DNA of 64,000 nucleotides from Minisyncoccota bacterium (GTDB lineage: Bacteria; Patescibacteriota; Minisyncoccia; Phycocordibacterales; PALSA-1337). The stretch is from NCBI GenBank assembly GCA_041665325.1, contig JBAYJB010000002.1, positions 28,674-92,673 on the forward strand. The letters are read 5' to 3'. The position numbers are program-made. Positions 26,301 through 32,300 of this stretch are shown piece by piece; within the stretch, counting starts at the first letter, position 1; the number at the start of each line of letters is the position of its first letter.

Positions 26301-29300
26301 CCGTGAGCTCGGCCGTCCAGCATCAGGGTCTCCTGGTTTTGGGGGGACTCGCCATCCTCGTCTGGGGTGGTTGGTGGCTGTCCAAACAGCCCCGTGGCAA
26401 GAGGTTATTCCACCGGCTCATCCTCAAACTGCCGATCGTCGGCGGGCTCGTCCAAGAAGTGAATACCGCCCGCACGGCTCGTACCCTCTCATCCCTCCTC
26501 TCTGCCGGCGTCAACGTCGTCGAGTCCATGGAGATCACCTGCGACGTGGTGCAGAATGTCTACTTCCGCGATGTCCTCAAGAAGGCCGGCGAAGCCATCA
26601 AGAAAGGGGACCTGATGTCCAAAGTCTTCAGTGTCGAGGACAAATATTATCCGATCTTCTTCGCCGAGATGATGAATGTGGGTGAAGAGACCGGCAAGAC
26701 GGGGGAGATGCTCATCAATGTCGCCCGTTTCTACGAAAGCGACGTGGCCGAGAAGACCAAGGATATGTCCACGATCATCGAGCCGGTGCTCATCGTAGTG
26801 ATCGGCGCGGGCGTCGGATTCTTTGCCATCTCCATGATCTCGCCGATGTATTCGCTGGTCAACGCTATCCAATGATGAAGCATCGAGCCGGTTTCAGTCT
26901 GATCGAAGTCCTGGTCGGAATCGGGTTATTCCTGGTGGTGGCTACTGCCGTGTACAGCTCGTATGTCAGTTTGATCAAGCTCGCCAATGCCAACCAGGCC
27001 CGCATCGTCGGCATCCAGCTGGCCAACGAGCAATTCGAGGTCGTCCGCAACATGCCCTACGTCAATGTCGGCCTCACCAACGGCATCCCGATCGGAGTCT
27101 TACAGCAAAATCAGACCCTCATCCGCGGCGGATTTACTTATACGGTCACTCTAGTCGTGAGGAACATCGATCTGGCCACGAGCACGCTCCAGGCTTCGAG
27201 CAAGCTCGTCGAAGTCAATATTGCCTGTGCTTCCTGCAAGCAAGGCTTCGACCCGATCGTCCTCACCGGGTATGTTTCCCCGGCCAATCTCCAGTCAGCG
27301 GCCTCGGGCGGCGCGCTGATCGTGCAAGTTTTTGATTCCAATGGCATCCCCATCCAAGGAGCTACGGTCGTCGTCCAGAGCACGGCCACTTCCAGCATCA
27401 CCAATACCGATATCACCAATAACAACGGCACTCTGGAGATCATCGGCGTGCCGCCGGGAGCCAATGTCTATCGCGTCACGGTCAGCAAGACCGGTTTTTC
27501 TACGGCCCGCACATATGCGCCCGGCGACCCGAGCAATCCCAACCCGTCGAGCGCCGATATCACCATCGTAGCCGGCGAGGTCTCGCAAGTCAGCCTCTCG
27601 ATCGATGCCTTGAGCGAGCTCAACTTCACCAGTGTCTCCCCGACCTGCCAGCCGGTCGGCAATTTCCACTTCAATCTGACGGGCGAGAAGCAGATCGGGC
27701 AGGGCGTCCCGAAATATTCGGAGGATCTGGGCACTGATGCCGGCGGCACCTTGGCCTTGAACCCGATGGAATGGGATACCTATACTCTGACTCCCGCGGA
27801 CTCGACTCACGATGCGAACGGCATCACCCCTTTCTCACCGATCGCTCTCAATGCCGGCAACACCCAGAATATCCAGCTAGTGGTAGTCCCGCAAAGCCCG
27901 AATAGTCTGATGGTGGCGGTGCAAGACAGTGCGCTCAAACTGCCGCTCTCCGGGGCGACCGTCGAACTCTCCGGCAACGGCTATGACCGGTCCGAAGTGA
28001 CCGGCCAGGGATTCTTCAGCCAGACCGACTGGTCCGGGGGATCTGGGCAGTCGGCTTTCCTCATCCAGAACAAGTACGCCGGCGACGACGGCAGTGTCGA
28101 CGTCTCGACCTCGAGCGGTAATGTCGTCCTCAAGCAAGTCTTCGATGAGTTCAGCCCGAGCGGCCAGCTGGAATCCTCGACCTTCGATACCGGCTCGCCG
28201 AGCAACTTCTACTCTCTATTCTGGACACCGATCAACCAGCCGGCTTTCGCCGGGCAGGACCCGATCAGATTCCAGGTGGCGACCACTCCGAGCACCACCC
28301 CCGACGGTCCCTGGACATATCTCGGTCCGGACGGCTCGGCCACAAGCTATTACACCGTGCCCGGCACGCAGATCAGCGGCGCGGCCGGCAACCAGTACCT
28401 GCGCTACATGATGTATCTCTCGACCGAGACTGCCACCGTGACGCCGAGCATCTCGGATGTTTCGTTTACATACACCTCGGACTGTATCCCACCCGGCCAG
28501 GTGCTCTTCCAGGGACTGACGGCGGGGGACTATACGCTAAATATCTCGAAATCGGGCTATGTCACCTGGAGCGGCACAGTCACAGTTGGCGCCGGCTGGC
28601 AGAATACGGTGATCAATCTGGAGCAGTAGAGATCAAAAACAGCCAGAAAAGCTATGTTTAGAGCCGAACTTGGTACTATTGACTAAGGGTAATTTATGCG
28701 GTATACTAGCACAGTAAGATCTTTGATACACTGACTTGCAGTGGTCATAGCCAAAAGAGCCTTATGCAGGGCTTTCCTGGCTATGACCACAAACGGTCCT
28801 AGTAATTGCATCTAATAGGTGCAGTTAGCTCACAACTAGCAGTTGAAAATAGGATTGTTATGAAATACCCAAATGTAACGTTAGGTCGCATCGAAGCAGT
28901 TTGGAACAAACTCGGCGGCGAAGATGGTGTCGACAAATTTCTCCGCGATGAGCTCAGGGTTTCTGAACCGGCTCGCCGCTTCCGGATGGAAGACGGGGTG
29001 ATCTACTTCACCCTCCCGCCGACTGGCGGCACCACCGGTCCTCAGTGGATCGAGCGTCTGGAGAATAAGGGCATCCAGCTCAGTAAGTGGGCCAAGGACG
29101 TCCTGAACTCTCCGGACTTCAAGCCGACCACCGGTGTCGTGAACAATATCGCGGTCTTGAAGGGCGAACTGTTCACCGACGGTAACCGGATCACCTCGAA
29201 GATCCGCGCCGAAGCCGACAAGCGGAAGTTCCAGAAGCCCAACGCCGAGATCGCCTGCTGGATCCGCGACACGTTCACGGACAAGGAGATCGAAGAGATG

Positions 29301-32300
29301 GGGCTCATCTGGATCGTTGCTATGCACGAGCCCATCAAGGACTCCGGTGGCGATCTGAACCTCCTCCACGCGAGTCGTTACAGCGTTGGTCCTTGGCTCA
29401 GCACGAGCTGCGACGACGCCGGCCGCAGGTGGGCTCGTGAGGACGGGTTCGCGTTCGTCGTCCCGCAAGTCAGCTCTCAAGCCTAAGTCGCTCTGGACTT
29501 CGGTTCTCTGCACTTAGTTCTTAGCCCGGCATCACGCAAGTGATGTCGGGCTAAACTTTTGTCGGAATATTGATATACTAGTGGCGGTAGTAGGCGAATC
29601 ATGCGAGAGGTCAAGGCTCCCCGCGGCCGAATCCAGTATCCATGCATCGAGAGTATCCGCGGTCACGGTGCTAGAATCCCTTTCCAGAGCCGTATTTTCT
29701 ATAGTTGGTTGACATATAGGCTATATTTGCGGTATAATGTAGTATTAAGATCTTTGAAAGGTAAACTTGCAAAATCAATGTTATGGCGTTGTTTAGGGGT
29801 GTGAAATTCGTGTCTCTAAACAACGCCGTAACTAAGATAAACGGCGTGGGTCAAGCCTCACCTCGCATGAAGCGAGACGGTCAAGCCCAAATGCAGTAGA
29901 AAAGGAAATATGAGTAACGTCGTATCACGCGATCAAGCTCTGGAAGTCATGGCGAAAGCCATGACGAACATCGACTGGGACAATGTCAATGGTGACCGCC
30001 TCCAGTCAGAAGTCGTCGGCCTCAAGCCGACGGAGATCGGACAACGCTTCACCGCGTTTCTGAACAACGGTTGCCGACTCATGGTTGGTGAATCGAAGGT
30101 CGTCAGGACCAATCCCAACCTCAAATTCAACCCTGCCGAATTCATCGGCGAAGGTTGGACGATCTGGAAAGGCCCGGCGAACGGCGACGGCCTCTCGGGC
30201 AAAGCCGAAGTCGACGAGCGCTCACCCGCGCTTATGGAAGTCGATCTCTCCAAGGCCCTCTTCGAATCCTGCCTCAAGCAGGGTGAAAGTTCGATCAAGG
30301 GCGAGGAAAAGCTCCGCCGGTTGCGGGAGTCAGGCAACATCCAGTTCGGCGGCAACGTCTTCCTGGCTCTGTGGCAGGACTATCAGCAGAACAAGGAGAA
30401 CAGCTGTCTCGAGTGGCTCTACCGGAATCACAAGATCTCCTGGATGAGCTTCTTCGGTCTCGTGCTGCGTAACCCGAACGGCCGCCGCTGCGTCCTCTGT
30501 CTGTTTCGGTATGACGGTGAGTGGGACTGGAGCTACTCTTGGCTCGGCTACGTCTGGCGCGCCGGCGGTCCGTCCGTTGGTCTCGCAAGTTAGTGCTTGG
30601 AACTAGGTCACTGTGCGCTATTGGTGCTTTGACCTTTGCCCTCGACCCGTACTTTCGCAAGGAAGTACGGGTCTCAATTTTCTATCTTGGCCTCCTGTCA
30701 CACGGCAACAGCAAAAAACTGAAAGATGCGATACAATTATCCCGTGAATAGTTCTCGCCTCAATCAAGGCATGACCCTCATCGAGACTTCGGTCGCGCTC
30801 GGAGTCTTTTCTATCGTCTTCGTCGCTATGGCCGCCTTCCAAGCTAACATCTTCATCCACCAGCGGACTGTGGCCGGCTCGCTCCAGACTGTCCAGGATG
30901 CCCAGATCATCCTCAAGACCATGCTCGCTGAATTGCGCTCGGCCGCTCCGGCCGTGAACGGCATCTATACGATCGCCACGGCGGCTACCTCCAGCCTCTC
31001 ATTCTTTTCCGACCCCAAGAATACCGGCCAGACGCAGAAGATCACCTATTCGCTCATCGGGAACAAGTTCTATCGCGCGGTGATCACTCCTTCCGGCTCG
31101 CCGCTCTGGTATAATCCGGCTACTCAATCCACCACGACGCTTCTTACTGATGCCAGGAATGTGCCGACCCTGCCGGTCTTCCAGTATTATGACCAGAACT
31201 ATACCGGCACCAGCTCGCCCATGACCATGCCGGTCAATGTCTCATCCATCCACCTCATCTCCGTGGCCTTGACTCTGGATATAGATCCGAATCGCTCGCC
31301 CACGCCGCGCACCTATACTACCCAGATCAGCTTGCGTAACCTCAAGACCAATCTATGAAGACCAGAGGAGACATACTCGTGAGCGTCCTAGTATTCGCGG
31401 CCATCGCTATGACCGTGACCATCGGCCTCGTCAATTGGGGAGGCACCATGTTGCGGAGTCTGCGCACGGCCGAAGCCAGGGAGCAAGCCTTCCAGATCGC
31501 CGAGACTGGTATCGACTATTATCGCTGGCATCTGGCGCAATCTCCTACCGATTATCAGGATGGCACGAATGCCCCCGGGCCTTATTACCACGATTTCCAT
31601 GATAAGGACGGCAATCTAGTCGGTTCATACATGCTGACCATCGTCCCTCCGGCTATCGGTTCGACCAAGGTCACGATCACTTCGACAGCCACAACGACAG
31701 CACACCCGGAAGTAGTCCGCAGCATCCAGTCTGTCTTGGCCCAACCATCCTGGGCCCAATATGCCACCGTCGCTAACGACAACCTGCGTTTCGGTGCGGG
31801 GACATCCGTCTTCGGCCCGATCGTGGCCAATGGAGGCATCCGTTTTGACGGCATCGCCTACAATGTCATCTCAAGTGCCAAGAATACATACACCGATCCC
31901 GATACCGGCAGCACTCGCTGGGGAGTTTGGACGTCTGTGGCTCCGGCCGATCCCCAGCCGAACACGCCGATCGTCTCCAACCCGGGAGTTTTCACAGCTG
32001 GCCGGCAATTCCCGGTGCCGGCGACTGACTTCAACGGGCTGACCCTCAATCTGCAACAGCTCCAGACGGCTGCGGCTCCCGGCGGTGTATGCTCCGCTCC
32101 CGGATGCTGGGCTTCATCGTCGGCGCGGGGATATCACTTGGTCTTGAATACCAACGACACCTATACGATGTACAAGGTCAACAACCTCCATTCGGCCCCG
32201 AGCGGCTGTAACAACGCGCTCAATCAGCCACAGTGGGGCACCTGGAGCATCAGGGTCAATAGTTCGGGCGTGATCAACGGCCAGTCTCTTGTTGGCACTT

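Follow-up and report, generated by a model that had tools for sequence, protein, structure and literature searches.

Within a 64-kb stretch of contig JBAYJB010000002.1 from a Minisyncoccota bacterium (assembly GCA_041665325.1; this whole stretch is referred to as the window), two small genes, here named geneA and geneB, stand head to tail inside a type IV pilus locus. The interval that they occupy is best understood as a decayed diversity-generating retroelement (DGR) cassette of the type found in the ultra-small bacteria of the Candidate Phyla Radiation (CPR), inserted in the pilus locus and carrying two DGR targets; a probability of about 0.8 is given to this reading, which concerns both the identity of the element and its decay. 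CPR-type DGRs were reportedly first surveyed by Paul et al. in 2017. In relatives of the two genes, an error-prone reverse transcriptase (RT) rewrites the last ~130 nt of the gene, the variable repeat (VR), using a template repeat (TR) close by, and the positions of template adenines are randomised. Comparison with homologous loci indicates that geneA and geneB are members of two different families of small, non-membrane DGR variable (target) proteins of the CPR type. The genes and the ancestral cassette are of a known kind, namely CPR DGRs of B3 architecture whose targets are of unknown domain. The decayed state is likewise ordinary biology, with 44% of the informative geneA loci being without an RT.

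The linkage of both families to DGR components is evident from the neighbourhoods of their relatives. A scan of one genome per species found a geneA relative in 241 genomes; 80 of these loci were examined, and 66 had enough downstream sequence to be informative. Directly downstream of the target, the order TR, avd (on the opposite strand) and RT was found at 37 of the 66 loci, five of which gave a short RT match only. The other 29 have no RT, and some of them keep only Avd or TR. For geneB, six of eight loci carry a TR and an RT, and Avd is present in five of those six. In the first three geneA neighbourhoods, for instance, bAvd and RVT_1 genes lie just downstream, and a direct repeat of 127-131 nt links the 3' end of geneA with a site ~470 nt downstream.

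The repeats themselves bear a specific mark. Among 48 VR/TR pairs, 695 of 770 mismatches fall at template adenines, and three further pairs from the geneB family add 52 of 54; the total for the 51 pairs is 747 of 824. Such adenine-specific mismatches between VR and TR are the signature of a diversity-generating retroelement. Both the enrichment of RT and TR beside the two families and the adenine bias were tested across the homolog loci, and both held.

The order of genes corresponds to the 'B3' architecture, which is found in 90% of CPR DGRs (Wu et al. 2018, PMC5758913), and targets of DGR clade 2, the CPR clade, are typically without transmembrane or known domains (Roux et al. 2021, PMC8144416). 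Like the CPR B3 DGRs, homologs of both genes show a C-terminal VR, a TR ~470 nt downstream, an opposite-strand avd and an RT, as well as adenine-specific mismatches and small targets with no transmembrane segment or known domain. Unlike them, the window copy is without a TR, avd and nearly all of the RT, and it joins two targets of different families head to tail.

At the protein level, a database search found geneA to be identical to a hypothetical protein from a metagenome-assembled genome of Candidatus Paceibacterota. At least 1596 homologs of geneA, 60-70% identical, are spread across Patescibacteria, and geneB has 185 homologs in the same superphylum. The initial annotation of the window, made from the sequence without database searches, had described the two products as cytoplasmic paralogs of unknown function. 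Scans against Pfam, PHROG, NCBIfam and PADLOC indeed gave no family match for either protein or for 46 family members, and PDB sequence searches with both family profiles returned no match. The cytoplasmic (non-membrane) character is also borne out, as neither protein has a hydrophobic N-terminus, signal peptide or transmembrane segment (maximum KD19 0.53 and 0.74), and the prepilin motif N_methyl was absent from both in the domain scan. Paralogy, in contrast, was not sustained. BLASTP between the two proteins gives E=2, and a profile-profile comparison aligns only the C-terminal 57 columns (E 0.005, probability 7%), while the N-terminal three quarters are unrelated.

The segment that had been aligned by eye is the C-terminal VR scaffold, the sole part of the two proteins that aligns, and weakly so. 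In the family alignments, this invariant scaffold reads LL.A.R...G.WL...P..W.R..GFAFV in geneA and VLR.P.G.R.VL.L.R..DG.W.W...WL...W in geneB, with hypervariable positions lying within it. A fold search returned C-type-lectin-fold matches that include known DGR variable proteins; the AF2 model of geneA is poor over the VR. Among the systems nearest to the two genes are the structurally characterised DGR variable proteins Mtd (1YU0), TvpA (2Y3C) and TaqVP (5VF4), together with other C-type-lectin and FGE-like folds.

A chimera was observed at one related locus, L086 (loci from related genomes carry L numbers), where a protein encoded at 4836-5510 combines the N-terminal ~50 residues of the geneB family with the body and VR of the geneA family. 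Its composition indicates that it is a product of domain shuffling among DGR targets.

In the window, the cassette is reduced to its targets and fragments. Searches by tblastn and blastn with RT, Avd and VR found no RT, Avd or TR in the 64 kb except for the tail of an RT, and none was found in the next 8 kb of the contig. A self-contained DGR cassette, with an intact RT, a TR and an accessory gene beside the target, is absent from the window. When aligned with the TRs of relatives, both window VRs can be seen to keep the footprint of past adenine mutagenesis. For the VR of geneA (VR-A), set against the consensus of 39 family TRs, differences occupy 16 of 27 conserved-adenine columns (59%) versus 9 of 64 others (14%); for that of geneB (VR-B), compared with only three TRs, the figures are 13 of 23 invariant-adenine columns (57%) versus 15 of 74 others (20%).

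The RT tail provides a further trace of the former cassette. Its position is matched by 33 of 37 RT C-terminal tails from related loci, and in a search of the 64 kb with such tails the best E value was 2e-5 at this remnant versus 0.008 at the best site elsewhere. The remnant aligns with the end of the RT of locus L048, SSYLGMLKHGNAHKLKNEVQL. In L048, an intact cassette of geneA, X (a structured element between target and TR, described below), TR, avd and RT lies directly upstream of orthologs of the window's minor-pilin gene (46% identity) and GspK-like gene (56%), and the homology between the window and L048 spans geneA and reaches position 29668. In a different frame, the remnant also overlaps the minor-pilin gene at its start codon and leader peptide; what was once the end of an RT gene now serves as the 5' region of the pilin gene.

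One replacement event would lead from a cassette like that of L048 to the present arrangement. In this event, ~2.2 kb, comprising the 3' half of X, the TR, avd and RT codons 1 to ~310, would have been lost, and a second target module of ~1 kb, consisting of a promoter, a leader, geneB and a terminator, would have come in. Tandem or multi-target arrangements are known from relatives: in L017, two complete cassettes are present, one of the geneB type and one of the geneA type; behind geneA in L013, L079 and L084 stands a second module made up of leader and target; and L048 has another VR-type gene with a similarly truncated X upstream of geneA. Unless they are served in trans by a DGR located elsewhere in the genome, geneA and geneB in the window would now be fixed alleles, and a separate strong promoter would drive each of them.

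Several points weigh against this account. A tandem pair of cassettes that underwent two separate deletions would end in the same product as a single replacement, and the single-replacement scenario rests on one syntenic genome with ~56-58% protein identity. With neither a TR nor an RT in the window, the assignment to DGRs rests on homologs and footprints. Moreover, the search covered the window and the next 8 kb, and an active DGR acting in trans could lie in the remaining ~29 kb of the contig or elsewhere in the genome.

The alternative that survives best takes up this last point. It holds that geneA and geneB are live remote targets, provided in trans with RT, Avd and the cognate TR by an intact DGR at another place in the genome. 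Targets of a DGR need not be adjacent to it, and avd-TR-brt function in trans (PMC5758913). The number of geneA loci with no local RT, 29 of 66, is large for pure decay, both open reading frames (ORFs) of the window are intact, and the VR scaffolds retain their invariant positions. Additionally, the 3' end of VR-A is an exact match to two foreign TRs at 32 specified bases; a degenerate-pattern search for the cognate TR, run on metagenome contigs that do not include this organism's contig, returned only two foreign DGR TRs. However, no RT, Avd or TR lies within 72 kb around the two genes, the local fragments of X and RT point to a cassette that was once self-sufficient and has since been broken, and two families would require two different TRs. 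Remote supply in trans is thus considered unlikely, and a decayed cassette remains the preferred reading of the interval.

The conserved part of these systems is not limited to proteins. Each of the two targets in the window is preceded by a promoter and a leader, and the initial annotation was right in regarding the two promoter-leader modules as homologous. They have common elements, and one covariance model matches both. The modules have a common 5' boundary sequence, AGAGCCG.A.TT. Exactly two copies of the 12-mer TAAGATCTTTGA are present in the 64 kb (28715 and 29746). Each begins 7 nt past its -10 box and is followed, after another 7 nt, by ACTTGCA. The identity of TAAGATCTTTGA and ACTTGCA in the two copies suggests a common origin or homogenisation within the genome. 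A long hairpin, P1, comes next, with arms at 28741-28761/28770-28790 in leader A (21 nt, 86% complementary) and 29780-29796/29816-29832 in leader B (17 nt, 94% complementary). A covariance model of the 5' stretch and P1 matches only these two leader copies in the window.

The leader motif is also conserved in relatives, namely in 51 geneA-family upstream regions and six geneB-family leaders. In the geneA family, the order is -10 box, ~7 nt, AGTTCTTTGATA, 3-6 nt, ACTTGCGA, P1, junction, P2, P3, Shine–Dalgarno sequence (SD) and AUG, and the alignment places the promoter at the same position upstream of the homologs, with a similar -10 context. P1 is formed by UGGUCAUAGCC...GGCUAUGACCA and has a variable apical hairpin; UCCUC-GGAUUA-GAGGA is an example of P2, and GGGC-AAAUUA-GCCC and CAAC-UAGCA-GUUG are examples of P3. 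In P1, 19 of 21 pairs show changes on both sides and 93.8% of cells are paired; none of 500 shuffles reaches the observed values, and slid controls are 28-48% paired. At two positions of P1, the pair is G-U in 34-40 of 48 sequences, which favours an RNA, or at least a strand-specific, structure. In other words, a conserved covarying structure is located between the promoter and the start codon. The geneB-family leaders (L006, L094, L009, L017, L008 and L096) have the same 5' stretch and a long hairpin of other stem sequence, with compensatory changes relative to the window (GTTGTTT/AAACAAC versus GTTCTTT/AGAGAAC).

In 757 kb of related CPR DNA, sense-strand matches to the leader stand almost only before geneA, geneB and other small genes with a VR-like C-terminus; one exception is a 131-aa protein in L053. 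This distribution indicates that the promoter-leader is the standard 5' module of such DGR target genes, in which P1 measures 21 bp or more.

The second conserved non-coding element, X, lies between the target terminator and the TR, ~100 nt past the target stop, in essentially all TR-bearing loci of both families. It is ~130 nt long and has two folded domains with an extended -10-like box in front, and 20 of 32 pairs in the X alignment show compensatory changes. The window copy ends in the middle of domain 2, diverging after about alignment column 105; its 3' half and the TR are gone, and the conserved 3' end of X, GAAGATACTTGG, is missing. The template RNA that RT-Avd recognises may include X. 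Like the RT-associated RNA motifs (Weinberg et al. 2017, PMC5737381) and the DGR RNA spacer of BPP-1, X is structured and contiguous with the TR. The RT-10 motif is flanked by the TR and RT of phage BPP-1 (Weinberg et al. 2017, PMC5737381); unlike the motifs of that study, X precedes the TR instead of standing between it and the RT, and carries a promoter-like -10 of its own. A GATA..ACTTG motif may be common to the 3' end of X and the leader; it is absent from the truncated X of the window.

Other small proteins whose C-termini are Trp-rich and VR-like were observed at L013 3762-4638, L079 1856-2599, L048 ~240-1126 and L084 5754-6575; their genes have the same leader in front or X behind. At least four target families seem to share leader and X modules, often in tandem with geneA, as far as these loci suggest.

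Searches of Rfam found no leader or X match in window positions 28500-30900 at E<=10, and none at the gathering score in 14 related loci; in L003 5700-9400 there was no relevant match, RT motifs included. The RT-associated motifs of Weinberg et al. (PMC5737381) are different elements from leader and X. Both the leader RNA and the X domain appear to be uncatalogued, being absent from Rfam 15 and from the literature found, and a prior description in Paul et al. 2017 is possible.

A possible mode of action of the leader is suggested by its potential base pairing with the translation start. In the window, the junction ACGGUCCUAG (28793-28802) can pair with the ribosome binding site (RBS) AUAGGAUUGU (28849-28858) at a computed -12.2 kcal/mol. 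Many leaders have, immediately 3' of P1, a segment that is complementary to the region around the SD or the start codon; other subfamilies show GCUCAU opposite AUGAGY, and compensatory variants such as GUUCAU/GUGAAC occur. The junction-RBS duplex has a mean of -8.19 kcal/mol within a sequence versus -7.46 between sequences, with 33 of 2000 permutations reaching the observed value. Pairing of the 5' stretch with the SD was considered as another candidate and discarded (self -6.73 versus cross -6.85 kcal/mol; 1351 of 2000 permutations).

In the mechanism proposed here, the junction-RBS helix, which encloses P2 and P3 in the geneA family, would mask the RBS and thereby control translation initiation, and P1 together with the conserved 5' stretch would be the element acted on by a factor or signal. 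Control of translation by RBS masking is put forward tentatively, as a proposal that is somewhat less likely than not. The masking helix is modest in statistical support. The transcription start sites are predicted to lie ~7 nt past each -10, at about 28714 and 29745, with a possible one for X at about 29586. Like RBS-sequestering leaders (translational riboswitches, ribosomal-protein leaders and RNA thermometers), the leader is a structured 5' untranslated region (UTR) that runs from a strong promoter to the start codon and contains covarying helices, including one able to mask SD and AUG. Unlike them, it has no known ligand, protein partner or regulatory response, and it has no match among 4227 Rfam models; in the DNA examined, it is confined to DGR-type target genes of Patescibacteria. 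The broader claim that the leader may constitute an uncatalogued class of regulatory RNA dedicated to Patescibacteria DGR targets, with sensing by P1 and the 5' stretch and gating of translation, in at least two (probably at least four) unrelated families, is possible and must at present be called doubtful. If it is true, leader and X are an overlooked conserved non-coding part of CPR DGR systems.

P1 could also be seen as a DNA element. According to this alternative, the promoter-leader-gene units are mobile cassettes, and the inverted repeat of P1 is a recombination site, similar to an integron attC site or a transposon end, rather than an RNA structure. Such units do occur in tandem and in many unrelated genomic contexts, the two window modules begin at the common boundary mentioned above, domains are shuffled in the L086 chimera, and the L001 copy adjoins an IS30-type transposase. 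Yet P1 always lies between the promoter and the RBS on the coding strand, and two of its pairs, G-U in 34-40 of 48 sequences, would become C-A mismatches if the opposite strand folded. No integrase or recombinase recurs near the leader-gene units, and the structure that follows P1 is bound up with the SD and the start codon. A recombination site is therefore very improbable.

The least tenable alternative is that of the initial annotation, in which the two genes form an undescribed accessory module for the pilus or DNA uptake, with two cytoplasmic paralogs under a dedicated regulator that binds the AAGATCTT palindrome. The site between pilB/pilC/pilin and the minor pilins, the geneA homologs adjoining pilB in L029 and L021, the location of L048 in the same pilus locus, and the identity of the TAAGATCTTTGA 12-mer and the ACTTGCA 7-mer in both leaders speak for it; it is nevertheless hardly credible, as pilus genes are missing from the surroundings of 63 of 66 homolog loci, whose contexts are unrelated (ribosomal operon, tRNA synthetase genes and rnc-smc, for example), the genes are consistently accompanied by TR, avd and RT, the leader family consensus contains no such palindrome, and the proteins are not paralogs outside the VR scaffold. 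Pilus genes were searched for in 4-6 kb on each side where the contig allowed. They were found near three of the 66 informative geneA loci (L021, L029 and L048, the last being the syntenic locus itself) and near none of the eight geneB loci, so that no general linkage to pili emerges; both families are variable-protein genes of CPR-type DGRs, a known kind of system, and are linked to TR, avd and RT in most relatives. The operator fares no better. Its palindrome is not part of the leader consensus AGTTCTTTGA, the family consensus AGTTCTTTGATA is non-palindromic, and the AGATCT variant is shared by both leader copies of the window with L006, the nearest geneB relative. The conservation of promoter and operator, which had been taken as a sign of a dedicated regulator, largely reflects a structured RNA whose stems covary.

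The decayed cassette has implications for the annotation of CPR genomes, in which the very common and highly conserved 'hypothetical proteins' of these two families in Patescibacteria can be called DGR variable-protein families even where no RT is nearby. With cassettes that range from intact through partly deleted to RT-less, the series also informs DGR biology, as targets outlive the retroelement and modules are swapped. Leader and X are concrete RNA elements that are open to experiment, and the locus bears on the question of the role and expression timing of intracellular hypervariable proteins in CPR bacteria. The features of the locus are collected in Table 1.

Table 1. Features of the decayed DGR cassette and its surroundings (positions in the window unless a related locus is named).
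Feature	Position	Strand	Details
pilB	23897-25645		Upstream side of geneA/geneB
pilC	25652-26875		Upstream side of geneA/geneB
Pilin-like gene	26872-28629		585 aa; upstream side of geneA/geneB
geneA promoter	28679..28707	+	TTGACT-17-TATACT; consensus scan, 10/12 matches
Leader A	28708..28859	+	Structured 5' UTR (predicted); R1 covariance model 72 bits, E 4e-13
Leader A, 5' single-stranded motif	28715-28739		
Leader A, P1	28741-28790		
Leader A, junction	28793-28802		
Leader A, P2	~28804-28828		
Leader A, P3	28833-28845		
geneA	28860..29486	+	ATG start, 208 aa; start backed by homolog alignments
geneA VR	~29343-29471	+	Within geneA 3' end
geneA terminator hairpin	29521..29554	+	15-bp stem, GCAA loop, T tract
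Truncated X	29570..29680	+	-10-like TTGATATACT (29570-29579) and first ~95 nt (from 29586) of structured template-RNA 5' domain
geneB promoter	29709..29738	+	TTGACA-18-TATAAT; consensus match 12/12
Leader B	29739..29909	+	5' motif 29746-29770; P1-type hairpin 29780-29832; R1 covariance model 19.9 bits, E 0.08
geneB	29910..30593	+	ATG start, 227 aa; start backed by homolog alignments
geneB VR	~30460-30590	+	Within geneB 3' end
geneB terminator hairpin	30644..30673	+	13 pairs, GCAA loop, T tract
RT remnant	30683-30739	+	FYLGLLSHGNSKKLKDAIQ; last ~19 codons of DGR RT; right behind geneB terminator
Minor pilin gene	30726-31358		Downstream side of geneA/geneB
GspK-like gene	31355-32815		Downstream side, after minor pilin
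X copies elsewhere	L003 6733-6860; L048 2129-2254 and 1040-1126		

The layout drawn up initially was largely accurate: the two genes, their near-consensus promoters of the sigma70 type, the leader elements, the hairpins and the pilus surroundings are all present where they had been placed. The second promoter has the hexamers TTGACA and TATAAT as described, and the spacer measures 18 nt instead of the 19 reported. The strong terminator that had been assigned to geneA is present as well, and geneB has a terminator too, which had gone unnoticed. A near-identical terminator hairpin lies behind the geneA homolog of L064.

The loops of both window terminators, C-GCAA-G, are complementary to the leader sequence CUUGCG. 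Pairing between terminator loop (CGCAAG) and leader was considered as a family feature and rejected, with such loops found only in window A and B, L001 and L064. A GCAA-type loop of this kind in a hairpin was present in 4 of 85 downstream regions checked, and the complementarity is probably a coincidence of GNRA tetraloops.

Relatives of the locus offer further observations on genomic context. In another CPR genome, a geneB homolog (L006 6001-6684) lies between rplE and rpsN in a ribosomal-protein operon. The same rplE-rpsN gap on the window's own contig (L091 15840-16861, ~5.8 kb past window position 64000) holds two paralogous ORFs of ~107 aa and a holin-like ORF. Ribosomal genes inside CPR DGRs were remarked on by Wu et al. 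(PMC5758913). In L003, an RNase P RNA (8729-9096; 86.7 bits, below the gathering score of 100) stands right behind the DGR RT gene, and a direct repeat of ~125 nt (8633-8757/9082-9205, spacing 448 nt) matches both ends of this RNA.

Within the pilus locus of the window, the pilin-like protein encoded upstream of geneA combines a prepilin N-methylation motif with CarboxypepD_reg and PEGA domains and is unusually large for a CPR pilus locus. Elsewhere in the window, three tRNA genes lie at 20-90, 696-768 and 1303-1373 on the plus strand, and an AdoCbl-II (cobalamin) riboswitch aptamer is located at 9628-9698 on the minus strand (43.8 bits, above gathering).

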